Below, piece after piece: positions 1 to 62,138 of a DNA stretch of 64,000 nucleotides. The stretch is taken from contig CAZSCV010000001.1 in NCBI GenBank assembly GCA_964605525.1, forward strand, positions 172,645 to 236,644. Reading direction: 5' to 3'. Every line of letters begins with the position of its first letter. Position 1 is the stretch's first letter. Source of the stretch: an uncultured Bdellovibrionales bacterium (GTDB lineage Bacteria; Patescibacteriota; Minisyncoccia; Moranbacterales; UBA9337). Position numbers and translations under genes: made by a program. The notes under the pieces are model-generated. The model saw only the letters and a list, made by a program, of their open reading frames with translations. It did no database searches and was not told where the DNA came from.

Positions 1-191
1 TCGTCAAAAAAATATGCTGGATAAGAATTGGCGGTTTGACGCGGTTTCCGTATGGCTCAGCGAAGATCAAAAAGAAGCTAAAGTAAAGCATCTGGAAAGT
101 ATCTTTTTGTGAATTGAAAAAGGAGGAAAAGCATGATATGATGGCAATGTGGAGGCAGGCAGTAAATTAAGAGGATAATTATACAAAAAAT

Positions 192-539
192 ATGTTGGAC
201 AAAAATGTTTCAGATGAATTGAAGAAGATGCTACTTAGCGAGAAAGAAAAATTGGAAAACGATTTAGGAAGAATTGCCAATCCGACCGGAACCCCGGGAG
301 ATTATGAGGCAAAGTTTGAAGACATAGGAACAAGTAGCGATGAAAATGCCATGGAAGTGGAAGAATATGCCGACAAATTGGCGCTGGAAAACGATTTGGA
401 AAAACAACTCAAGGATGTTAATGATGCCTTGGAAAGGATGGAAAATGGGACTTATGGATTTTGTGAAAATTGCCAGCAAGAAATTGATATTGAAAGGCTG
501 CGGGCATATCCGGCGGCAAGAACTTGCATTAAATGCTGA
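192..539 (+). CDS. DksA/TraR-family C4 zinc-finger protein
   Basis: 115 aa; C-terminal CxxC-x17-CxxC (FCENCQQ...RTCIKC); acidic coiled-coil N-terminus typical of DksA/TraR. Confidence 0.7.
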   Translation: MLDKNVSDELKKMLLSEKEKLENDLGRIANPTGTPGDYEAKFEDIGTSSDENAMEVEEYADKLALENDLEKQLKDVNDALERMENGTYGFCENCQQEIDIERLRAYPAARTCIKC

Positions 540-576
540 ATCCTGCGAATTTACAAATCCTGATACAAATCTACAA

Positions 577-987
577 ATGTTAAGAAAAAAGTTATTTCTT
601 ATAATAGTTAGTTTGATATTTATTGATCAATTGTCAAAATATATTGTCCGTCTTTTTAATGAAGGCGGATTTTATATTTGCAACACAGGGGTGGGTTTTG
701 GAATAAAAATACCGGAAGTTATGTTTTTCTTCTTGTGGATTGGTATTGTTATTTTTCTGATTTATTTGTGGCAAAAAAAATACTTCGTGCATAATACTTT
801 ATACGCAACACTGATTTTGTCTGGCGCTGTTTCGAATATTATCGACAGGATTTTTTACGGATGTGTGACGGACTTTATTGATCTGAAAATATGGCCGGTC
901 TTCAATTTGGCGGATATTTTTATAACAATCGGAGCCATTGGGATTGTCTATACTATATGCAAAAAATCACCCGCTTCTCGCGGATGA
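577..987 (+). CDS. lspA: lipoprotein signal peptidase (signal peptidase II)
   Basis: Internal ATG of ORF 340..987; 4 TM segments; NLADIFI motif. The N-terminal part of the ORF-track call overlaps dksA in another frame and is rejected. Confidence 0.8.
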   Translation: MLRKKLFLIIVSLIFIDQLSKYIVRLFNEGGFYICNTGVGFGIKIPEVMFFFLWIGIVIFLIYLWQKKYFVHNTLYATLILSGAVSNIIDRIFYGCVTDFIDLKIWPVFNLADIFITIGAIGIVYTICKKSPASRG

Positions 988-989
988 TT

Positions 990-1069
990 TTTGTTTTGGA
1001 TTTTGAGCATAGAAGTTGGGGGTGCTTGCCTGCCTTTGGAGGGAATGCCCAAAATCAAAAACTCCTTAG
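990..1069. repeat. interspersed repeat family R1, copy A (overlaps RhuM stop codon)
   Basis: Left part ttggattttgagcatagaagttggggg resembles copy C (5238..5299). The 26-nt core 1043..1068 gaatgcccaaaatcaaaaactcctta matches copy B at 25/26. Confidence 0.6.
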
Positions 1070-2088
1070 TTTTCTCCAGTCGGTAAAGATTTCACAAACT
1101 TATCAAAATCAGATTCTATCGCTTGTGTTTTGTTATATTCATCATATTCTTGAAATGCTTTTTGCTCCGCTTGAGCGTGAGAAATTGAACCTTTTCCTTC
1201 AAGCACATCGTATTTATTGAATTCCAAGAAGTTATTTACGGACTCTGCCAGTTTTTCCATCGTGAGAGAGGTGTGATTTTCAATCAATCTTTCAATATAG
1301 TCAAAATAGCCGACGATACCTCTTTCTAGCTTCTTTATTTTATCTTCATTAAGATAATTTTTGGCGATAACTGTGTCTGATTTAAGAATCCTGCCTTTTG
1401 GAGAATTTTTCCAAGTTTTCAGTCCCATGAAAGGTTTTTGCTTGTCTGCTGTTTCATAAATAATCTCAGCTGCGGTTTTGCCGGTAATGGCAAAATGGAA
1501 TTTATTTTGAATTATCGCGTAAAAATTTTTAGCAATCTCGGATGCGGGACTATAATCCATGCTGCATTCAGCAAAAATATCCGTGATTTGCTGGTAAATT
1601 TTTCTTTCACTGGCGCGAATTGAACGGACTCTTTCTAGGAGTTCAAGGAAGTAATCTTTGTCAAAATATTTTCCGTTCTTTAGTCTATCATCATCCATTG
1701 TAAAGCCTTTGATGATATACTCCTTGAGTCTTTCTGTCGCCCAAATACGGAACTGAGTGGCCTCAGCTGAGTTTACTCGATAACCAACGGAAATTATGGC
1801 GTCAAGATTGTAGAATTTTGTTTGGTATTTTTTTCCGTCATTGGCAGTATATTCCAAAATGGAATGAACTGAATTTTCTAGTAGTTCGCCACTTTCAAAA
1901 ATATTCTTCAAATGTTTGGCGATAGCTGGCTGTTGCACGCCAAATAGTCTGGCCATCTTATTTTGATTCAGCCAAATATTTTCGTCATGAAAGTAAATTT
2001 CCACTTTTACTTTGCCACTTGGAGCTGTATAAAGTAAAAATTCTGTCAGCTCATCTTTTATGCTAATTTTATGATTGTTTTTGGGCAT
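1066..2088 (-). CDS. RhuM-family virulence/DNA-binding protein
   Basis: 340 aa; conserved RhuM blocks: EIYFHDENIWLNQNKMARLFGVQ, ISVGYRVNSAEATQFRIWATERLKEYIIKGFTMDDDRLKNG, ERVRSIRASERKIYQQITDI. Confidence 0.8.
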   Translation of the reverse strand: MPKNNHKISIKDELTEFLLYTAPSGKVKVEIYFHDENIWLNQNKMARLFGVQQPAIAKHLKNIFESGELLENSVHSILEYTANDGKKYQTKFYNLDAIISVGYRVNSAEATQFRIWATERLKEYIIKGFTMDDDRLKNGKYFDKDYFLELLERVRSIRASERKIYQQITDIFAECSMDYSPASEIAKNFYAIIQNKFHFAITGKTAAEIIYETADKQKPFMGLKTWKNSPKGRILKSDTVIAKNYLNEDKIKKLERGIVGYFDYIERLIENHTSLTMEKLAESVNNFLEFNKYDVLEGKGSISHAQAEQKAFQEYDEYNKTQAIESDFDKFVKSLPTGEN

Positions 2089-2146
2089 GAATTTTGTATT
2101 TTAGTTGAATGAAGCTTGTCTTTATTTTACTATATATGGAGCCTAA

Positions 2147-2176
2147 GGTGAATGCCTAAAATCAAAAACTCCTTAT
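2147..2176. repeat. interspersed repeat family R1, copy B
   Basis: ggtgaatgcctaaaatcaaaaactccttat; near-identical to the copy A core; lies just upstream of the RhuM start, so the gene is bracketed by direct repeats. Confidence 0.6.
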
Positions 2177-2397
2177 TGCTTGTAATTTCCGGATTGGTCA
2201 AAGTTCCGCGTAAATGAGTCTCTCCTTCGCAAATCCGCGCACGATATGAAAATATAGAATGATTTTCCTTATTATTAGTGCCCTTTTGAAATTTTTTCCG
2301 CTTTAAGCCCCGTCCTTGACAAATGCTAAATTTTTGCTAAACTACTTTGAACACTAATCTTGGTGTTAAATTGCTCTTACAATTAAGGAGGCTGAAA

Positions 2398-2730
2398 ATG
2401 GCTACAGAACCGAAAAAAGAGGTGTATATTCAATTATGGCAATATCGCTCATCTGCGCTACCTTCGGAATATGGTTTTTCTCTGCATTTTTTAAAAAAAG
2501 ATTGGGAAGCGTTTGTCAAAAATTTTTGGGTGAACAAGCCTGACGATGCCCCAGCAACCTATGAGTGTCAATTTGGTCGACCGTTTCTTTGTGAGATCGA
2601 TCAGGAAATGTTTATGAGAGTAAAAAAAGAAGAAAGTATAAGATTGTACAAAGATTTTCCAGTCGGAATCCCAAAAAACTTTTTAAACCCTGACGCGTGG
2701 GCAAAAACTAAATATTCATGCCCGGAATAA
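2398..2730 (+). CDS. hypothetical protein
   Basis: 110 aa from ATG with RBS aaggagg 8 nt upstream; no recognisable motif; lies between repeat R1 copy B and R2 copy a. Confidence 0.4.
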   Translation: MATEPKKEVYIQLWQYRSSALPSEYGFSLHFLKKDWEAFVKNFWVNKPDDAPATYECQFGRPFLCEIDQEMFMRVKKEESIRLYKDFPVGIPKNFLNPDAWAKTKYSCPE

Positions 2731-2763
2731 ACATACCATCTATCATTCACTCACTAAGCTTTA

Positions 2764-2800
2764 CCCCTCGCGGAATTTAATTCCACTTGGGGCTTTTTTA
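2764..2800 (+). terminator. putative Rho-independent terminator
   Basis: cccctcgcggaatttaattccacttgggg imperfect hairpin followed by ctttttt. Confidence 0.35.
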
Positions 2801-2858
2801 AAAAAATTTCAAAAGGACTATCTAAATAAATATATTTTTGAACAAAATTTCGGACAAC

Positions 2859-2879
2859 GTGCGGCGGACATGAGAAGTT
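2859..2879. repeat. interspersed repeat family R2, copy a (partial)
   Basis: gtgcggcggacatgagaagtt; matches the 5' part of copy b at 4475..4495. Confidence 0.5.
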
Positions 2880-2941
2880 GCAACCGAAGGGAACAATTTG
2901 AGTGGAGAAGTCCGCAAGACTTCGTAACCTCATATCCCTTG

Positions 2942-4327
2942 TTATATTCCCCGAGGGGCTGAAATTGCAAGCTTATTCTTTAATCTAAAAACTTTATCAT
3001 AGAAAATAATCATTACAATTCCTAAAGGTGATGTGATTACAAACGTATTTTCCTTTAAAAAAGGATACGACGCAAGCAACAAAATAGTTGGGATTAAAAT
3101 TGAATAAAAGCTTGCATCAGCCGAAGTCTTTTTAGAGTAAATTCCCGCAATAATTGGAGGTACAAAAATTAAAGCCATATATGTTACAAATAAAGACAAA
3201 GTTATGATATTAGGGATTAAAAAAGCAATTAAAAACCCACCAATTCCAAATATAGCGGTTATAAGCCTAGCATAAAAAATTTCTTTTTTTGAATCAAATT
3301 GATTTTTCTTAAATATCCCTCTGTAAATAATAGTTGAACCTCCAACAAGCAGGCTATCGATTGAAGACATAATAACTGCCAAAATTGAAGCGAAGCCAAT
3401 ACCCACAAGATACGGCGGGAGAATTTTATCCATAAGTAAAAATATCGCTGATTCTTGTTTTATTCCTGAAAGCAAAACAGAGGAAAGTAAGCCTAGGAAC
3501 AAAACTATGAAACCAAGAAGAATTACAAAAGGAATAGACCAGAAAAATGAATTTCTTGCAACTTTTTGGTTTTCAGCTGAAAAAATTCTCTGCCAGTGGG
3601 TTGTATTCCCCAAATATAAAAACCCGCTTAAAATTATTACTCCTATCATCCAACCTATTCCACCGAAACCAAATGGATTGAGATGTCCCTCCGGAACGCT
3701 AGATAAAAGATTTGAGAGACCGCCAACTTCACTATATCCAACAAAAGCAAGGATTAAAAAAACGATCAGAATTATCCAAAACTGAATAAAATCCGTAATT
3801 ATATCTATTTTTAAACCTCCAATTGAGGTATATAAAATAACAACTAATGCAGATAAAATTAAAGCAATCTCATATTCTACACCAACTAAAACAGCAGCCA
3901 AGGATGTAATTGCCACTGCTTGAACCCCAATCCAGATGATTAATAAAAAGATTTGTAAAATACCAGTTAAAATTCTATTTTTGGTATCAAATCTTTTTGC
4001 AAAAAAATCAACAATCGTGTGTGCGTCATATTCATCACCGATAGCTTTTATTTTTTTAGCCATTATTCCAAGAATTAACATTCCTGCAACAAAAGAGATT
4101 GGCAGTGCTAAGCCATAAGAAATGCCCGAGTTATATACTTCTGAAACTACCGCAACCGTTGCACCAGCTCCGACAACGGTCGCAACAGTGGAAAAAGTCA
4201 TAAGCCATAAGCTTGTTTTTTTGTTATTCAAAAAGTATGCACTCAAAGATTCTTTTCTTGAAAAATACCAAGCAATACCAAACATTAATGCAAGATAGAT
4301 GAATAAAATAATTAGTGTTGTATTCAT
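2942..4327 (-). CDS. sodium:solute symporter family transporter
   Basis: 461 aa; about 13 TM; N-terminal region YFLNNKKTSLWLMTFSTVATVVGAGATV typical of SSF (PutP/PanF-like). Confidence 0.7.
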   Translation of the reverse strand: MNTTLIILFIYLALMFGIAWYFSRKESLSAYFLNNKKTSLWLMTFSTVATVVGAGATVAVVSEVYNSGISYGLALPISFVAGMLILGIMAKKIKAIGDEYDAHTIVDFFAKRFDTKNRILTGILQIFLLIIWIGVQAVAITSLAAVLVGVEYEIALILSALVVILYTSIGGLKIDIITDFIQFWIILIVFLILAFVGYSEVGGLSNLLSSVPEGHLNPFGFGGIGWMIGVIILSGFLYLGNTTHWQRIFSAENQKVARNSFFWSIPFVILLGFIVLFLGLLSSVLLSGIKQESAIFLLMDKILPPYLVGIGFASILAVIMSSIDSLLVGGSTIIYRGIFKKNQFDSKKEIFYARLITAIFGIGGFLIAFLIPNIITLSLFVTYMALIFVPPIIAGIYSKKTSADASFYSILIPTILLLASYPFLKENTFVITSPLGIVMIIFYDKVFRLKNKLAISAPRGI

Positions 4328-4464
4328 ATTATAAAGTTAAAGAATAAATATCCTTATTAAGTTTTCTAAAACCCGCGCCCTATTCATTACGTCTTTTGTG
4401 ATAGCAAGGACAGAATGTGCAAAACACCAAGGTGGCAATTCAAAATATCAATTTTCACGACGAT

Positions 4465-4547
4465 TGAATATAATGTGCGGCGGACATGCGAAGTTTTTGT
4501 CCGCTTCCTTAATTATATATAAATAGAAGAAAAGGGCAAAAATTTGG
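4465..4547. repeat. interspersed repeat family R2, copy b (full length, contains hairpin gcggaca-N11-tgtccgc)
   Basis: gaatataatgtgcggcggacatgcgaagtttttgtccgcttccttaattatatataaatagaagaaaagggcaaaaatttg; about 62 nt near-identical to copy c. Confidence 0.65.
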
Positions 4548-4637
4548 GAGAGATCTTTCGGAAAAGACCGAACCACATATGCCTTATTATCAAATATATT
4601 GCTCTTTTGCCATCCTAATTACAATGCTTTTAGAGGA

Positions 4638-4671
4638 GTGTGAGGCGAAGATTGATATCTTCACCTCACAC
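4638..4671. other. 13-bp stem hairpin (one mismatch) immediately 3' of the 86-aa minus-strand ORF
   Basis: gtgtgaggcgaag-attgatat-cttcacctcacac; no clear U-tract. Confidence 0.4.
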
Positions 4672-4683
4672 ACGTATGCCAGG

Positions 4684-4944
4684 TTATATGATTTCGCAAT
4701 CATCTTCCTGAAAAAAGAGCAACGGATGGCGCGGTATAAACACATCTCTAATCCAAAATTCTGCTGCACTTCCTTTTTCAAATTCAAATAGATGTTCCAC
4801 CATATCAGACATTCTTACAGCGTAGTGGCCACATCGTATAGGTCGTTCAATAATTGGAAGTACTTTGCCCACTAACATTTCTCGTAAACAGTACGGCTCC
4901 TCGTTTTGTTCAGGCGGAGTGCGTAAAACTTTGATTAAAGTCAT
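4684..4944 (-). CDS. hypothetical small protein (86 aa) in a repeat-flanked cassette
   Basis: Strong RBS (aggagg, 8-nt spacer) before the ATG at 4944; no recognisable family; flanked by R2 copies b and c. Confidence 0.45.
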   Translation of the reverse strand: MTLIKVLRTPPEQNEEPYCLREMLVGKVLPIIERPIRCGHYAVRMSDMVEHLFEFEKGSAAEFWIRDVFIPRHPLLFFQEDDCEII

Positions 4945-5035
4945 TGTGTCTACCTCCTATTTATTTAAGATTAATTGGAACCCCTATAAAAGCATTATAT
5001 AAAATGTGTAAAAGAGCAATATTTCCGACGTATCC

Positions 5036-5100
5036 GAATATGAGAAGTTTTTGTCCGCTTCCCTATTATATATCAATAGAAGAAAAGGGCAAAAATTTGT
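5036..5100. repeat. interspersed repeat family R2, copy c
   Basis: gaatatgagaagtttttgtccgcttccctattatatatcaatagaagaaaagggcaaaaatttg; lacks the 5' hairpin arm present in copy b. Confidence 0.65.
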
Positions 5101-5237
5101 GTTGAGTCCCGATATTCCTTATTTATTTTTAAAAGTGAAATCGGGATGAACCTCATATCCGGTGTTGGACGATGTAAATTTATTTTCTTTTTTTATTTTT
5201 TAAATTTGCTTTTATTCTAAATAGATCAAATAAGTTT

Positions 5238-5299
5238 TTTTGTTTTGGATTTTGGGCAGAGGGGTCAGGGGTGAATGACCTTTCCCCGAAACTCCTTAT
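5238..5299. repeat. interspersed repeat family R1, copy C
   Basis: tttgttttggattttgggcagaggggtcaggggtgaatgacctttccccgaaactcctta; shares both ends with copies A and B; lies 15 nt from the OLD-gene stop. Confidence 0.55.
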
Positions 5300-5314
5300 A
5301 ATATTAAAGTATGA

Positions 5315-7021
5315 TTACTTCAGTAGACTGTCTAATGCTTCAGAATAATTAGAAGCAATATTGTAATTGTATCTTTTAACTTTTTGCCAAAAAAGATACT
5401 TTACATCATCGTTATTTTTTATTAAGTCTTTGGCCTCTGCTTCAGATGAAATATTTTTTCTTCTTATACATCTTTCAACGCTAGCAAGTTTGGTTGGAAG
5501 AGAGTTTTTTGGAACCCAGGTTCTTGTATTGTAAATATCCGAGATGCATTCCTCGAGATGGTTTTCAAATTCAGAAAATAGATTTTCTGCAGAAAAGTTT
5601 TCTGGTAGAAAAATTAAAAAAACGTTCTTGGTGTCCTTAACTTTATATCTTTCAAATCCGATTTTTGACTTATCGAGTGTATTGTGTTCATAAAATCTAG
5701 AGACTTCATTCTTTCCTTTATCACTGTCTATTATAAAAAATATTTTGTTATTGATAACAAAAGGTGCCGATTGAAAAACGGCAATAAATTTCGATATTTC
5801 CGTAATGCCATTTAAGCCTTTCGTAACATTTATACCAGTATCAATAAATTTTTCAATTGTCCCTGTTTTTTCATCTTCTACAAAAATCAAAGGCTCATTT
5901 TTAGCTGCTAAGAAATAGGCGAAGAAATTTGGGTCACCCATTATTTTACCGATTTCTTTGATTTCGTCATCGGTGAATTGTGAGGTTTGCTTATTTAGAC
6001 TAGATCCAAGAATATTCCAAATAATTTTTTCTTCTGCTATTCTGCTGCCTGCTAATAGCACAGGAGAATGTGTTGATATGATCATTTGAATATTGTTAAG
6101 CCATTTTTCAGAGTTTAATTGTTTGGCTAAATTTGCCAACAAGTCAACATGTAGGAATGATTCTGGCTCCTCCAACAACCAGAGAGGGTGGTATTCTCCT
6201 CTGTGCAAGGTTCGATCGCTGTCAAGTAAGAAGTGTGTAAGATAAAGTATCGTAGATTGTGCACCAGTGCCTTGTGATGTTAATTCAATTTCTGGCGCAC
6301 CCTTGTAGCCAGAAAAATTTATATCAGAAATAGTTATAATATCCCTGATGCTTTTGGGCAAGTTAATAGAAATGCTGCTATCTGGCCACATTTTTTGGAG
6401 ATTTTCAGTTAAGGCACCGGAAAGATAGCTTTTTGACTTTTTTCTTAATTCTTCCCATTCATCTTGCAATTTTTTTATACTCTGGGTAATATTCGATCCT
6501 CTGCCCCAATTTGCCAATAAACGCTGACGTAATTTTTCTTGAGCATTTATTAATAAAGATTGTCCCTCTTGAGGATGTAAATATGTCACTTTAAAACTTT
6601 TTAAAATCTTCAAGATAGCGTCAGGAAAATTTCCTTTTAAAATATCACCATTTATTCTGTATGATGTGGTGACAATTTTTGTGTCGGTGGCGACAGAAAA
6701 ATATTTAATAATTGTTAATTTGTCACCGTACTCTTTAATTAATTCCTGTTTGAATTTTGGAGTGGTTAATTCTTCTAGATCAAATGTTAGGGCTATTTCA
6801 GCGATGTTAGACTCTTTCTTTTTGCTTAAAAACGATGTTTTGTTAATGATATTTCCATCAGATAAAACAGAGTCATCAAAAAAGGCATTTATGGCATATA
6901 ACACGGTGCTTTTTCCAGAATTATTTACACCAACAAAATATGATCCCTCACCTAGATTGAATGATACTTTTTCGCGAAATGTTTTAAAGTTTTTAATGGA
7001 TATTTTGTTGATCAGTGGCAT
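5315..7021 (-). CDS. OLD-family ATP-dependent endonuclease (ABC ATPase + TOPRIM), class-1-like
   Basis: 568 aa; Walker A GVNNSGKST; Walker B/D-loop LLEEPESFLH; H-loop ISTHSPVLL; C-terminal TOPRIM acidic motifs FVEDEK and FIIDSDKG. Confidence 0.75.
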   Translation of the reverse strand: MPLINKISIKNFKTFREKVSFNLGEGSYFVGVNNSGKSTVLYAINAFFDDSVLSDGNIINKTSFLSKKKESNIAEIALTFDLEELTTPKFKQELIKEYGDKLTIIKYFSVATDTKIVTTSYRINGDILKGNFPDAILKILKSFKVTYLHPQEGQSLLINAQEKLRQRLLANWGRGSNITQSIKKLQDEWEELRKKSKSYLSGALTENLQKMWPDSSISINLPKSIRDIITISDINFSGYKGAPEIELTSQGTGAQSTILYLTHFLLDSDRTLHRGEYHPLWLLEEPESFLHVDLLANLAKQLNSEKWLNNIQMIISTHSPVLLAGSRIAEEKIIWNILGSSLNKQTSQFTDDEIKEIGKIMGDPNFFAYFLAAKNEPLIFVEDEKTGTIEKFIDTGINVTKGLNGITEISKFIAVFQSAPFVINNKIFFIIDSDKGKNEVSRFYEHNTLDKSKIGFERYKVKDTKNVFLIFLPENFSAENLFSEFENHLEECISDIYNTRTWVPKNSLPTKLASVERCIRRKNISSEAEAKDLIKNNDDVKYLFWQKVKRYNYNIASNYSEALDSLLK

Positions 7022-7286
7022 AAAAAATATTTAAATCGTTTTCGCAGCGATAGCGGAGAAAACACCTTATTCCCCCTCATTAATTAATAAAAAAACAAAA
7101 TCGAATTCTTTTTAAGAGTTGGGCGAAGCCCAAAAGAAAATATGTATTTCATAACTCGTTATTATGCGAAACTCTAGTTTTTTTTGCGTGTTTTTTGTTT
7201 ATGTAAAAAGTATAGCATATATTCATTTTCGTGTAATCTGGCGGATATTTTCATACTTTTCGGCGTCGTGATGTTGGTTTTTGGTT

Positions 7287-7318
7287 TTGCGGGAAATAAA
7301 AAAGAAAAGGTGGTATAA
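7287..7318 (+). promoter_or_regulatory. candidate extended -10 promoter for comM
   Basis: tggtataat (TGnTATAAT) at 7310..7318; weak -35; about 55-75 nt upstream of the comM start. Confidence 0.3.
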
Positions 7319-7391
7319 TAAGGGAAGTAAAAAGTTAAATACATGGCGCATAATAGAAATTTGATGTTTTTTGTTATGTGTTTCATGCATA

Positions 7392-8924
7392 ATGTTTGTG
7401 CCATCTCGAGTATTTTCAGCAGCTACAATTGGACTGGATAGTGAAGTGGTAGAAGTGGAGGTAGATGTCCTTTCCGGAGGGTTGCATCAATTTACCATTG
7501 TCGGCTTGCCGGACACATCCATCAAGGAATCGCGCGATCGTGTTTCCAGTGCTATTAAAAATAGCGGATTCAAGCCGCCTCATCAATGCGGAAGAATCAC
7601 GGTCAACCTTGCTCCTGCCGATCTTCCAAAAATCAGTCCGATTTATGATCTTCCTATCGCGATTGGTTTTTTGATGGCAACAAACCAGATGGATTTTGAT
7701 TTTTCCAAGAAAATATTTGCCGGAGAACTGGCTCTTGATGGAAAAGTGCGCGCGGTGCAGGGAATTTTACCAATCGCTTTGATGGCAAAGGAAAAAGGAT
7801 TTGAGGAGATTTATATTCCCAATGAAAATGCGAGAGAAGCGAGTGTGGTAAAAGGAATAAAAATTATTCCTATCGGCAGTCTTTTTCAAATTGCCAATCA
7901 TCTGATCGGAGATGAAATTGTGAGCGAATTTCCTCCGGCTGAAATTGAAGATTTGTTTTCGGATTACAAAAGTGAATATGATATGGCAGATGTTAAGGGT
8001 CAACAACAAGCCAAGAGAGCAATGGAAATTGCCGCTGCCGGAGGGCATAATATCATTCTTAATGGTCCGCCCGGATCGGGAAAAAGCATGCTGGCAAAAA
8101 CCATGGTTTCAATTTTGCCGCGACTCACAATGAAAGAGGCGCTTGAGGCGACAAAAATATTTTCTATTTCCGGAAAATTGAGCAAAAATAATCCATTGGT
8201 TTTGGAGCGACCGTTTCGATCTCCCCATCACAGCGCCAGTGCCGTTTCTTTGGTGGGTGGCGGGACATATCCCAGACCCGGGGAAATCAGTCTTTCTCAT
8301 CGCGGGGTTTTGTTTTTGGATGAGTTTGCGGAATTTCCGAAAAATGTTATGGAAAGTTTGCGCCAGCCATTGGAAGATGGGGTGATTACGGTATCGCGCG
8401 CCAAGGGAACTTTGAAATTTCCCGCGCAGTTTATTTTAGTGGCGGCAATGAATCCATGTCCTTGTGGAAATGCGACTGATCCGGGAAAATTGTGTTCGTG
8501 CACTCCTTCTCAGATTTCAAGATATCAACGAAAAATATCCGGACCTATTTTGGATAGAATTGATTTGCAAATTGAAGTACCTAGGATTGATTTTGAAAAA
8601 TTAGAGGATGAAAACAGGGGGGAATTGAGCATATCTATTCGAAAAAGAGTGGAAAGCGCAAGAAAAATCCAAGCAAAAAGATTTGAAAAATCGGAGATAA
8701 TCACCAATAGTGAAATGGGTTCCAAGCAAATCAGGAAATTTTGCGTTTTAGACGACCATTGCAAAGATATTTTACGAGGGGCGGTTTCTTCTATGGGACT
8801 TAGCGCCCGGTCATATTTTCGCTTGATTAAAATTGCGCGGACTATTGCCGATTTGGCGGGAGTTGATAATATTAGAGGTGTCCATATTGCTGAAGCAGTG
8901 CAGTACCGGTTTAAATCAGAATAA
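7392..8924 (+). CDS. comM: YifB/ComM-family Mg-chelatase-like AAA+ ATPase
   Basis: N-terminal SRVFSAATIGLDSEVVEVEVD; Walker A GPPGSGKS; Cys cluster CPCGN...CSC; ORF track starts at TTG 7371, first ATG is 7392. Confidence 0.85.
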   Translation: MFVPSRVFSAATIGLDSEVVEVEVDVLSGGLHQFTIVGLPDTSIKESRDRVSSAIKNSGFKPPHQCGRITVNLAPADLPKISPIYDLPIAIGFLMATNQMDFDFSKKIFAGELALDGKVRAVQGILPIALMAKEKGFEEIYIPNENAREASVVKGIKIIPIGSLFQIANHLIGDEIVSEFPPAEIEDLFSDYKSEYDMADVKGQQQAKRAMEIAAAGGHNIILNGPPGSGKSMLAKTMVSILPRLTMKEALEATKIFSISGKLSKNNPLVLERPFRSPHHSASAVSLVGGGTYPRPGEISLSHRGVLFLDEFAEFPKNVMESLRQPLEDGVITVSRAKGTLKFPAQFILVAAMNPCPCGNATDPGKLCSCTPSQISRYQRKISGPILDRIDLQIEVPRIDFEKLEDENRGELSISIRKRVESARKIQAKRFEKSEIITNSEMGSKQIRKFCVLDDHCKDILRGAVSSMGLSARSYFRLIKIARTIADLAGVDNIRGVHIAEAVQYRFKSE

Positions 8925-8941
8925 TTTGACTGTTTTTATGT

Positions 8942-9925
8942 ATGTTAGCGAGAAATAAGTTAAAAATTTTAATTATTTTCGGATTATTCCTTGGTTTTGT
9001 CTTTAGCGCCAAGGCATTTTTTTTCGATGATGAAGTGATACGGGGGGATGAAAATGGCAGAAAAAAAATAACAGTAAATGATGACGGAATAATTTTCGAT
9101 GTGTATACGCAAAAAAAAACGGTGGAAGATTTTTTGGCAGAGCAAAAAATGGAAATTAAAGCCGGTGATCAAGTTATTCCGGACATTAAAGCGGTTCTTT
9201 TTTCCAATTCCAAGATTTCCATTGCAAGGTCAAAAAAAGTTATTGTAAATGATGAAAATAAGGAAAGTGAATATATGACGATTTTTTCCGATATGGATAA
9301 GTTTTTTTCTGAAAATGGAATCAAGTTGGCAGAATTTGACATTGTTAATCCTTTGACTTCAAGTCCGGTTTTTGACGGGATGAAAATTGAAATAACTCGG
9401 GTTGAAGTTAAACAGGAAGTCGAAAATGAACCTATTAAATTTAAAACAATTACTGAAAAAGATGAGGATATGGGATGGAGAAAAGAAGAGGTTGTGCAAA
9501 AAGGGAAAAATGGAGTGAAAAAAGTTGAATATGAGGTGGTGTATCACAATGGAAAGGAAATTTCCCGAAAAATTAAAAATACTGAAATCGTCCAAGAACC
9601 GGTGGAAGAAATTGTCAAAAAGGGGACGTTTGTAAAAATTGGAAAAGTGCATACAGGAGCGGCAAGTTGGTACGCCCAGCCTGCGCGGCTAAAATCCATA
9701 TTTCCTTCGCTTACCGGGTATTACGCGGCCAATCCTTGGCTTCCGAAGGGAAGTTATGTTAAGGTAATCAGTAAAGATAACGGGAAATCGATAATTGTTC
9801 GGATTAATGATGTTGGACCATTTGGTCCGGGAAGAATAATTGATTTGGATAAATCGGCATTTTCCGTGATTGCTTCGCTTGGAGCCGGAGTGGCGGATGT
9901 TAAAATGGAAGAAATACTTAATTAA
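8942..9925 (+). CDS. DUF348/G5/RlpA-like (DPBB) domain cell-wall protein
   Basis: Signal peptide/TM; G5 domain; C-terminal ASWY...INDVGPF...RIIDL RlpA-like double-psi beta-barrel. Confidence 0.65.
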   Translation: MLARNKLKILIIFGLFLGFVFSAKAFFFDDEVIRGDENGRKKITVNDDGIIFDVYTQKKTVEDFLAEQKMEIKAGDQVIPDIKAVLFSNSKISIARSKKVIVNDENKESEYMTIFSDMDKFFSENGIKLAEFDIVNPLTSSPVFDGMKIEITRVEVKQEVENEPIKFKTITEKDEDMGWRKEEVVQKGKNGVKKVEYEVVYHNGKEISRKIKNTEIVQEPVEEIVKKGTFVKIGKVHTGAASWYAQPARLKSIFPSLTGYYAANPWLPKGSYVKVISKDNGKSIIVRINDVGPFGPGRIIDLDKSAFSVIASLGAGVADVKMEEILN

Positions 9926-10068
9926 TTTAAGACCTGTGCATTTGGATAATTTTCGTATGGTTTTCCAGGAAAATATTTTTTTCTCCGGTCCTTTCGAGGG
10001 ACACGGACAGCTATGAAAAAAACATTTTTCCGGAAAACCGAAAGTTTTGTTATTCAATCAGGTGAGTC

Positions 10069-33779: not shown

Positions 33780-33877
33780 TTTTTAGCTTTTTAGAAATTA
33801 ACTTTCTTAGCTTATTAGTTTATAGAACTGAAAGCCTAAAAAGCTGCAGCCTATAATAATCCAATTGCTAATTTACG

Positions 33878-34285
33878 TGGAGCTGATGGGAATTGCACCC
33901 ATGTCCAGAGTTGATTTTAAAAAATATTCTACAAGTTTATCTTGTTTATTTCCGCCCGAAGGCGGTACGGACTTTCGGCTGGAAAACAAACAAAACACCG
34001 AGAGCCCGTCTTTGAGAATTTTGCCGAAAACAACCAAAGATAATTGTTGCCGGCTATCCTAATGGTTGGCACCAAGATCTATTTATTAGGAATCAATAGC
34101 TTGATGGCTATCGGCCTATATTAGGCAATAGCGGAAGCAAAAGCGAAATTTCTTGCGAAAGTTGCTTTTACCTTTGATATAAAGTTTGCACTTAAATATC
34201 TTCCATAAACATTTTTACGACGTGTATTATGAATGGTCGACTTGCTTATTTTTTAAAGTGCAATCTGTCGAAGCTAAGCAGCCCC
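33878..34285 (-). ncRNA. ssrA: tmRNA (ssrA)
   Basis: 5' GGGGCUGCUUAGCUUCGACAG. 3' tRNA-like end with T-arm AUGGG-UGCAAUU-CCCAU. Acceptor GGGGCUG/CAGCUCC with a G3:U wobble, discriminator A, CCA not encoded. Ala-rich tag frame GCA ACU UUC GCA AGA AAU UUC GCU UUU GCU UCC GCU AUU GCC UAA at 34165..34121. Adjacent to smpB. Confidence 0.8.
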
Positions 34286-62053: not shown

Positions 62054-62138
62054 TGGTGCCGATGGAGAGACTCGAACTCTCATGAGCAAGCCCACACGAT
62101 TTTGAGTCGTGCGTGTATACCAATTCCACCACATCGGC
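62054..62138 (-). tRNA. tRNA-Leu (anticodon CAA)
   Basis: Acceptor GCCGATG/CATCGGC; 3-bp D-stem; anticodon loop CUCAAAA; long variable arm; T-arm GAGAG-UUCGAGU-CUCUC; CCA encoded. Confidence 0.85.

Follow-up and report, generated by a model that had tools for sequence, protein, structure and literature searches.

Structured intergenic modules flanking variable genes are known from T4-type phages (the promoter-stem-loop, or PeSL, modules) and from Neisseria (the intergenic mosaic and Correia elements); both display mosaicism and chimeras, and are shuffled by homologous recombination, with neither a fixed crossover nucleotide nor a dedicated recombinase. The pdif modules of Acinetobacter carry 28-bp dif sites in alternating orientation. 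The integrases of integrons (IntIs) have as their defining characteristic an additional domain (PMC9668308), which is essential for integron function (PMC8138268). The locus described here is the interval between lspA and comM in a stretch of 64,000 nt (the window in the following), positions 172,645 to 236,644 of contig CAZSCV010000001.1, from an uncultured bacterium (Candidatus Moraniibacteriota) assigned to the Patescibacteriota, within the Candidate Phyla Radiation (CPR). It had been described, from the sequence alone, as a mosaic accessory island cut into single-gene cassettes by two families of short repeats, R1 and R2, between which recombination would swap the cassettes, and as an element of no standard type. 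The island itself is an ordinary defence island. Compared with its relatives, it is probably what decay has left of an integron-like platform for gene capture that had at one time entered the 3' end of lspA. Its repeats, together with a recombinase found in related loci, look like the marks of an integron-like cassette system present in many CPR bacteria; the element would then be a variant of a standard type, the integron.

Two sets of loci, numbered with the prefix L, were compared with the window. The first comprises 71 loci found via ComM, almost all labelled Moranii-, Parcu- or Patescibacteria, for a total of 1.2 Mb of comM neighbourhoods; the second comprises at least 120 metagenome loci, which were fished by the R1 pattern and hence are a biased sample. 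Covariance models of R1 and of the element corresponding to R2, here called S, were built from unrelated metagenome copies. In the window, R1 repeats are 84% identical between 988-1024 and 5237-5273, and 96% between 1043-1068 and 2150-2175; R2 repeats are 91% identical between 4481-4546 and 5035-5099, and 74% between 2828-2879 and 4443-4495. Both are real and confined to the island, as had been claimed: the core pattern of each matches twice in 64 kb, vs 0.03-0.04 matches expected, with none outside the island, and the covariance models recover the copies. They do not form two independent families, as had been supposed, but are two parts of one composite junction. Read in the orientation of R1, the junction runs from the start of the left gene, on the minus strand, through the hairpin of a third module, U (CGTTTTC…GAAAACA, then CACCTTATTnCCCCTC), and an AT-rich arm, to S, an inverted copy of the AT-rich arm, R1 and the stop codon of the right gene. 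Junctions with both U and R1 are 330-420 nt long.

S is a three-stem element of about 110 nt with AAC…GTT ends, like an integron attC site. Its form is …CTAAC-GT-(P2, 5' strand)-GAWGTT-(P3 hairpin)-AWWTGGGTGGA-(P4 hairpin)-GTAAC-(P2, 3' strand)-T-GTTAG…, and its ends read …(A/G)(G/C)CTAAC and GTTAG(C/G)(T/C)…, in some copies exactly GCCTAAC and GTTAGGC. These end cores resemble R'' and R' of attC, many copies departing from RYYYAAC, while P2 is placed like the L box, and P3 and P4 like the variable tip. The ends carry the arm of the recombinase core site described below (…CGCCTAAC and GTTAGGCG…) and pair as stem P1, followed by P2 and the two variable tip hairpins. In a curated alignment, used for the model and for covariation and leaving out chimeric copies, both partners have changed in 13 of 23 pairs, and 93% of the cells are paired, vs 31.9-42.8% when the pairing partner is shifted by 1-3 columns. 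P2 is an uninterrupted stem of 11 bp, paired at 97.8% in the alignment, with no conserved bulge; at least 10 of its 11 pairs are formed in 80% of 46 unselected copies, vs 23% after random re-pairing of the halves. Wobble changes in S are evenly shared (8 G·T vs 7 A·C). In the 1.2 Mb of relatives, the S model finds 8 significant copies (E<=0.02), all in or next to variable regions; outside the window they occur only in the island of L006, in L058 and in L060.

Copy a of S in the window has a long AT-rich P3 loop which resembles a minus-strand promoter. Promoter-like matches (TTGCCC-16-TATAAT) are found on the minus strand at 4512-4539 and 5065-5092, within the enlarged P3 loops of the two decayed copies, and point at the genes for a sodium:solute symporter (SSF) and for an 86-aa protein. 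An interpretation of R2 as a duplicated minus-strand promoter with a stem-loop was rejected: the match is real, but is limited to the two decayed copies and absent from canonical S, and is therefore at best a local gain, which may have occurred inside dead recombination sites.

R1, a hairpin of 55 nt, has its place between S and a cassette gene's stop codon; its consensus is GTTTTGG-ATTTT-GGGCA-GAGGGGTTAGGGGTGAA-TGCCC-AAAAT-CCAAAAC-TCCTTA. Its mid-stem covaries (ATTTT/AAAAT, GCTTT/AAAGC, GGAAA/TTTCC, GCAAA/TTTGC), with 30 G·T vs 13 A·C wobble changes, and its loop, GAGGGG…GGGGTGA, is complementary to a C-rich box of U. With few exceptions among the loci, a convergent gene has its stop codon adjoining or overlapping the right end of R1 (offset of the stop from -1 to +85, with a mode at -1, where TAA lies inside TAAGGAG), the neighbouring gene being convergent to R1 in about 92% of the loci listed. 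In the window, R1 copy 1 begins directly after the lspA stop codon, and its last bases, TTA, are the stop codon of the RhuM gene on the minus strand. R1 copy 3 forms, with 5149-5235, a conserved block of S tail, spacer and R1; over window 5149-5305, about 100 of the metagenome loci listed match at 65-80% identity. In the 1.2 Mb of Moraniibacteriota comM neighbourhoods the covariance model finds R1 four times, twice in the window and once each in the L006 island and in L058.

Other identities of R1 were considered and abandoned. The bases after it are TCCTTATT (plus strand) and GGAAAAAG (minus strand), with no T-run on either, and its fold energies barely beat those of shuffled sequence (z -0.2 to -2.2); it is thus not an ordinary terminator, and a terminator scan called none at R1 or S. 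The sequence-only reading had pointed out that the repeats might turn out to be ubiquitous motifs of this type; with four R1 and eight significant S copies in 1.2 Mb, each located within a variable region or beside one, they are not. Rfam 15 gave no match at E<=1 in window 1-10000, and none at the R1 and S of four loci whose copies are canonical. A classical attC was dropped for R1, which has GTT at the outer stem ends, in the opposite polarity, and S fits much better; an origin from phages or plasmids was rejected, since viral contigs contained no R1 matches. In at least 13 loci (L084, L087, L089, L094, L109, L122, L149, L151, L152, L163, L164, L188, L190) a second R1-type hairpin follows in tandem, in the roughly 65 nt after R1, and one is also present in L138, L145, L177 and L184. 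The stems of these second hairpins differ (GTTTGAGGGAGGGGCAA…TTGCCCCGACCGAAAAC or CAAATAAAAGGCAAAAA…TTTTTGCCTTTTATTTG), but the loop keeps the form GGGG-N-GGGG; across R1-type hairpins it is the loop that is conserved, and not the stem.

U combines its hairpin with the C-rich box CACCTTATTCCCCCTC, to which the R1 loop is complementary. Window 7027-7170 recurs in about 60 of the metagenome loci listed, with U at 70-89% identity and always directly upstream of the first gene of a cassette. U hairpin loops (e.g. window 7044-7056) and the P3 loops of S share GTAGCG-N-AGCGGA in many loci, which may reflect a protein-binding site or a common origin.

Maps of the longer loci are made of units of U, 1-4 genes and R1. 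All together, 159 S copies are present in 100 of the 120 loci listed, all on the strand of R1 and with a median spacing of 1340 nt; L130 alone contains six of them in 6.1 kb. The 100 distinct neighbour proteins of the loci listed represent 73 Pfam families and are rich in defence functions, with type I specificity subunits, AAA_13, AAA_15/21 with OLD TOPRIM, restriction enzymes, methylases, DUF4145, HEPN and RhuM as frequent cargo. The proposal that the repeats mark cassette boundaries holds for the window and for over 100 other contigs. The further claim, that every cargo gene of the window is bounded by repeats, needs a correction: each gene has an adjoining copy, but on its upstream side the OLD gene carries U (7027-7146) instead. 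Near-identical blocks of S, spacer and R1, 300-350 nt long, are found between unrelated flanks. In L119 the distance between an R1/S junction and an RNase P RNA gene (6216-6798; Rfam, 126 bits) is about 3.4 kb, so that at least this array is chromosomal and near core RNA genes.

Among 148 open reading frames (ORFs) neighbouring the junctions, 4 carry the Pfam domains Phage_integrase and Phage_int_SAM_4, and no HUH or DDE transposase is consistently near. A single family of tyrosine recombinases of 270 aa is present in L076, L105, L107, L121, L192 and L193, with fragments in L185, L079 and L007. Mostly, its gene comes right after the last cassette's U module and is read from the other strand, as in the layout of an integron. 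Upstream of every such gene there is a core site of lox/dif type, TTCGCnTAAC-TCGTTw-TTATrCGAA, in which inverted arms of about 9 bp (TTCGCnTAA and TTATGCGAA) surround a spacer of 6-7 bp; the arm sequence is that of both ends of S. The core site thus adjoins the recombinase gene, with the cassette genes on the strand opposite to it, as attI adjoins a divergent integrase gene. In L007 (ComM 89%) a recombinase pseudogene (411-725) immediately precedes comM; an early stop interrupts it some 20 codons from its start, IYTHV reads ICTKV, and the catalytic Tyr is replaced by Cys. Upstream of it, a 55-nt direct repeat with a hairpin (ATCTAAAACC…GGTTTTAGAT) occupies L007 positions 1-55 and 223-277.

The association was also examined from the side of the recombinase, by using six homologues picked only for the length of their contigs, without regard to repeats. 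Each of them lies among different core genes. The core site is present in all six, 89-101 nt upstream of the start codon, at a distance comparable to that in the array-end loci, and a further copy of the arm stands about 30-40 bp nearer to the gene. S is found in five of the six loci: all 7 S matches in 97 kb fall within 2.3 kb upstream of a recombinase, on the recombinase strand, and bracket small divergent genes. R1 is also found in one of the six.

Of 8000 candidate proteins scored, 6657 belong to the recombinase family at E<=1e-30. The best 120 (P0001-P0120) are 71-100% identical to the query and come from sources named Portnoy-, Pace-, Gracili-, Gottesman- and Moranbacteria; this identity across contigs of different CPR phyla suggests horizontal spread of the platform. 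One exact recombinase sequence occurs on 57 contigs. A separate Xer-like gene, 30-39% identical and on the minus strand, occupies a syntenic position in about 25 relatives (L020-L073), 6-8 kb downstream of comM, and is presumably the housekeeping Xer, so that the cassette recombinase is not; the syntenic gene has no match at E<=1e-8 in the window.

The position of the island was defined by comparison with the relatives. In about 40 Moraniibacteriota genomes dksA, lspA and comM are direct neighbours, separated by 50-250 bp; L045 and L064 have lspA-comM gaps of 1-1.5 kb. The site is empty in L005, the closest relative (ComM 94%), whereas L006 (ComM 93%) carries, at the same position, an insert of 9.2 kb with different cargo: HaeIII endonuclease and C5 methylase, an Apea-like HEPN protein, a fragment of an Eco57I-like methylase and other ORFs. 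The variable hotspot suspected from the sequence is therefore real. The end of the L005 lspA gene aligns with window 900 to about 935, and then with about 7265-7318; it follows that the island lies inside the 3' end of lspA, to which it supplied a surrogate end, leaving the original one orphaned. The intact LspA of L005 ends in FNLADSFIAIGAVMLIFGIIGNKGKKVV, vs NLADIFILFGVVMLVFGFAGNKKEKVV in the orphan of the window, and the same orphaned lspA end is found in L006. The left border of the island is accordingly at about 936, within the 3' end of lspA, and its right border at 7318, the end of the orphaned fragment, instead of at 990 and 7100 as first delimited, when the insertion had been missed. 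An AAC-type core was sought at the insertion point (crossover at about 935-940 and 7262-7268), and no clear one was found. The right end of the window island and its flank (7147-7500) is 95% identical to L006 and only 73% to L005, which suggests that exchange takes place through the flanks too.

What survives in the window are three S elements, two of them with mutated cores, two and a half copies of R1, one U, an attI-like core and the promoter region of a recombinase gene. In copy c of S, the SSF stop codon (2942-2944) lies inside the right core. No recombinase of the cassette-associated family is found within the 64 kb, nor in the L006 island. The array is therefore a fossil, similar to the clusters of attC sites lacking integrases (CALINs), and is probably frozen, unless it is acted upon in trans by a recombinase encoded at another place in the genome.

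The junctions themselves indicate how the cassettes were joined. Breakpoints were evaluated in pairs of loci at least 85% identical over the 60 nt to the right of the left-core AAC, and were scored as unrelated when identity leftward was 45% or less. By this measure 168 of 174 pairs are unrelated left of AAC, and in 137 of the 168 identity runs only 0-2 nt past the core; the cassette boundary is at the AAC core, as in integrons. The exact phosphodiester bond is not resolvable, because AACGTT is invariant. L105 and L155 share a cassette and its U up to …GCGTATAAC, beyond which an S element follows in L155, and the core site with the recombinase gene in L105. The recurrence of the breakpoint at one trinucleotide, in many independent junctions, argues for site-specific and not homologous recombination.

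It is for this reason that we regard as unlikely a mosaic generated by ordinary homologous recombination, in which R1, S and U would be portable expression signals offering homology for RecA-dependent swapping after natural transformation. This account would explain the lack of a recombinase in the window and in the L006 island, the existence of chimeric S and R1 copies, the placing of the modules at gene starts and stops, and the unequal similarity of the comM flank to L006 and L005. It does not predict breakpoints that pile on one trinucleotide, rather than spreading over 300 nt of homology, nor the dedicated recombinase and the lox/dif-type core with S-end arms at array ends, associated with the repeats whichever of the two is taken as starting point. 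R1, moreover, has no T-run on either strand. The swapping by general recombination between repeats originally envisaged for the island is set aside on the same grounds, the fixed AAC and the recombinase with its core.

A site-specific mechanism, fitted to the anatomy of the intact relatives, would be as follows. A recombinase of 270 aa, equally related to archaeal XerA and IntI, is transcribed away from the cassette array, and the double-stranded core site beside its gene would be the counterpart of attI. Each cassette consists of a leader U, 1-4 genes, often anti-phage, an R1 at or over the stop codon, and an S of about 110 nt; in gene orientation it ends with S, the putative counterpart of attC. 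Cassettes would be cut and joined at the AAC|GTT core of S. The fixed breakpoints, the anatomy and distribution of the junctions, and the link to the recombinase in both directions are observed; catalysis of the exchange by this recombinase, and the action of S as folded single-stranded DNA, are what we infer from them at the sequence level. Our guess is that R1 and U either flank S as inverted arms, aiding its extrusion, or insulate cassette expression.

The recombinase resembles both integron integrases and XerA. Its score exceeds the cut-off of NF040815 (XerA, 'site-specific tyrosine recombinase/integron integrase'), and some members of the family bear the latter name at NCBI. The integron integrase model TIGR02249 matches it with E 1e-61 to 1e-66, in two stretches and with 208-224 bits, vs a cut-off of 265. 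Its best solved relative is the integrase VchIntIA (2a3v), in an alignment where just 21 residues of the query correspond to the stretch between IntI residues 180 and 245; with Pyrococcus abyssi XerA (4a8e) the alignment is unbroken. As IntI residues 181-244 are skipped, the family lacks the IntI-specific insertion.

Could the system be a canonical integron or CALIN, with S an ordinary attC and the recombinase a short IntI, the host phylum being the only novelty? The structural relative, the TIGR02249 match and the NCBI name speak for this, as does a layout of AAC…GTT cores, one-orientation arrays and a divergent integrase. We nevertheless hold it to be quite improbable: the score is below the curated cut-off, the domain held to be defining and essential for IntIs (PMC9668308, PMC8138268) is missing, P2 is a perfect 11-bp stem with no extrahelical bases, and the cassettes carry the additional modules U and R1. 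The literature searched contains no description of such a cassette system, or of integrons of such a kind, in CPR, an absence which is not proof of novelty. A distinct and widespread CPR gene-capture system may quite possibly exist, as a sister of Xer/dif and classical integrons or an intermediate between them, and we advance it tentatively. It would be characterized by a XerA-like recombinase without the integron domain, a dif/lox-like primary site, a fold-back S without extrahelical bases, and stockpiled defence cassettes of 1-4 genes, each with its own leader and 3' hairpin; the window island would be its fossil.

A junction that is a selfish palindromic element, spreading by itself like a miniature inverted-repeat transposable element (MITE) or a hairpin-forming doublet of repetitive extragenic palindromes (REPIN), and tolerated beside accessory genes, is very improbable. 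The junction is indeed a long imperfect palindrome with S at its tip and arm families that match on both sides, its copy number in metagenomes is high, and near-identical blocks do lie between unrelated flanks. Such an element would hardly keep a strict orientation to genes, about 92% of which are convergent, with a stop codon overlapping the element, nor place all of the 159 S copies on one strand within a locus. The copies keep to variable regions, neither a target-site duplication nor a consistent HUH or DDE transposase neighbour was observed, and empty and filled pairs for the junction alone were not found, in a search that was not exhaustive. That S and R1 are structured RNAs (an antisense small RNA ended by R1, or control elements of leaders and 3' untranslated regions) with no role in DNA rearrangement is likewise very improbable: strong base-pair covariation, the mild G·T excess in R1 and the likeness of the complement of its loop to an anti-Shine-Dalgarno sequence, with a complementary box in U, would suit RNA, but S has no strand bias, folding is only weakly better than in shuffled sequence, and the fixed breakpoints and the recombinase link are left unexplained. 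An RNA role for R1 and U would be compatible with an integron-like platform.

Several points weigh against the integron-like platform itself. All of its support comes from comparative anatomy. The recombinase lacks the insertion needed by integron integrases and S lacks extrahelical bases, so that the strand choice and single-strand recombination of integrons are not simply transferable to it; neither in R1 nor in S do the wobble changes single out a strand. Chimeras between halves account for about 20% of the S copies and for several of those of R1, and at the opposite, non-AAC end S seems uncoupled from the spacer, as judged by a gapless identity measure which is crude; homologous recombination or gene conversion therefore also acts. 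The loci were obtained with the R1 pattern and the S alignment omits chimeric copies, the window itself is without a recombinase, and junctions of this length differ from the compact cassettes of integrons.

The features of the window are collected in Table 1. Genes were called and checked by Pfam and PADLOC over the window, and those named between lspA and comM in the sequence-only reading are as it described them. Anti-phage cargo is represented by the RhuM gene and by the OLD/GajA-like ATPase, which matches Old in PADLOC at 5e-25 and GajA over residues 3-497. The SSF transporter and the 110-aa and 86-aa ORFs gave no defence match in PADLOC, and the two small ORFs no Pfam or PADLOC family. 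The 110-aa gene is the sole cargo gene on the plus strand. None of the cargo genes is present in any of the 71 comM-related loci; OLD, SSF and the two small ORFs have no homologues at E<=1e-5 in the loci examined, comM relatives and metagenome loci alike, in which RhuM alone recurs (L129, L097, L185). L129 carries RhuM and R1 in another context, with 84% identity to window 985-2128. The GC content of the island is 34.1%, vs 37.4% in the rest of the window, of which it is the lowest 6-kb stretch; the comparison had been proposed as a check on the cargo.

Table 1. Features of the lspA-comM interval and its borders (positions in the window).
Feature	Position	Strand	Remarks
dksA-like gene	192-539		upstream of lspA
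lspA	577-987	+	present 3' end of the gene = 904..987
Surrogate lspA 3' end, …ITIGAIGIVYTICKKSPASRG, then stop	~936-987	+	differs from ancestral end; alignment with L005 lspA and orphan; translations
R1 copy 1, enlarged loop	987-1072	+	covariance model 51.5 bits
RhuM-family cassette gene	1066-2088	-	Pfam PF13310, E 1e-101; PADLOC PDC-S05, candidate defence family
R1 remnant, right half of hairpin	2150-2175	+	96% identity to 1043-1068
Shared non-coding modules	2201..2397	+	blastn
110-aa gene	2398-2730	+	ORF list; own Shine-Dalgarno sequence
S copy c	2850-2948	+	covariance model 43 bits, E 6.5e-10; cores CAAC…GTTA kept
SSF cassette gene	2942-4327	-	Pfam PF00474
S copy a, decayed	~4466-4595	+	partial model match 4505-4600, 21 bits; cores mutated, AAT…ATTA
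86-aa cassette gene	4684-4944	-	ORF list
S copy b, decayed	5021-5178	+	covariance model 33.7 bits; cores mutated, GAC…GTTG
Spacer between S copy b and R1	5179-5235		
R1 copy 3, near-canonical	5236-5302	+	covariance model 69 bits
OLD/GajA-like ABC-ATPase cassette gene	5315-7021	-	Pfam AAA_15/AAA_21
U module, conserved 5' leader of cassettes	7027-7146	+	upstream of OLD gene
attI-like double-stranded core, TTTCATAAC-TCGTTA-TTATGCGAAAC	7147-7172	+	same motif near recombinase starts
Remnant of recombinase upstream region, gene missing	7173-7234	+	window 7162-7237 matches L007 341-417
Orphaned original lspA 3' end, NLADIFILFGVVMLVFGFAGNKKEKVV, then stop	7235-7318	+	matches intact L005 LspA C-terminus
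comM	7392-8924	+	

Some additional observations concern the flanks and leaders of these genes. A 52-nt non-coding piece, window 2201-2252, is 96% identical to L006 9687-9737, in a different position: between the RhuM and 110-aa genes in the window, near the right end in L006. Window 2249-2409, the promoter and leader of the 110-aa gene, with a promoter-like TTGACA-16-TAAACT and a TG before the second hexamer, is also found by blastn in L006, L139 and L190. In L001 the sequence identical to window 577-987 (3186-3593) is not called as a gene in the public annotation; its ORF matches Peptidase_A8 (E 5e-23), and the lspA ORF is conserved in relatives. The Rfam scan of the window at gathering thresholds gave only a tmRNA, at 33875-34285 on the minus strand (121 bits), and one tRNA, both outside the repeats; ARAGORN reported only a tRNA-Leu(CAA), at 62054-62138, and no tmRNA.

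Integrons are the classic device by which bacteria capture genes, and their integrase is defined by an extra domain which reads the bulged bases of attC. If the proposed interpretation is true, a parallel system that dispenses with this domain, in the vast and little-understood CPR radiation, would extend the range of hosts and mechanisms known for cassette capture, and would offer a handle on the origin of integrons from Xer-type recombinases. It would also explain the turnover of anti-phage genes in cell-dependent CPR bacteria with tiny genomes. The S and R1 models mark cassette boundaries, and could serve for mining thousands of unannotated accessory and defence genes from groundwater and sediment metagenomes. 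For the window the message is modest: an ordinary-looking defence island would be a frozen cassette array.

The comparison with known systems can be summarized by type. With defence islands that bring a replacement 3' end the locus shares an empty site in the nearest relative, other cargo elsewhere (restriction-modification and HEPN in L006, OLD and RhuM here), a lower GC content and the duplicated 3' end of the target; it differs from integrative islands in having no integrase left, and in being, inside, a cassette array and not a single integrated element. From the PeSL modules of T4-type phages it is separated by the lack of any match of its repeats in viral contigs, and from the pdif modules by S sites which are 110-nt fold-back structures in direct orientation. 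Xer/dif systems, above all archaeal XerA, are closer: the recombinase aligns with XerA end to end and passes the XerA NCBIfam model, and the core site has the geometry of dif, with 9-bp inverted arms and a 6-7-bp spacer; unlike the syntenic housekeeping Xer, the cassette recombinase stands in a different context in every genome.

From integrons the system differs in its recombinase, which has 270 aa and no IntI-specific insertion, scores below the TIGR02249 cut-off and is missing from the window; in S, which has no extrahelical bases, an asymmetric 4/1-nt spacer and two tip hairpins; in its cassettes, often of 2-4 genes, with their own leader and 3' hairpin and junctions of 330-420 nt; and in its CPR/Patescibacteria host. 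It is like integrons and CALINs in that a divergent tyrosine recombinase beside a simple core site is followed by a cassette array in one orientation, each cassette ending in a fold-back site with AAC…GTT cores and bounded exactly at the core. The sequence of S is highly conserved, as the Vibrio cholerae repeats (VCRs) are within their lineage, and the cargo is rich in anti-phage genes, as has recently been reported for integrons. Finally, decayed arrays devoid of an integrase exist among integrons as CALINs; with three plus-strand S elements, two of them mutated in their cores, and no recombinase in 64 kb, the window is one of them, if S is accepted as attC-like.

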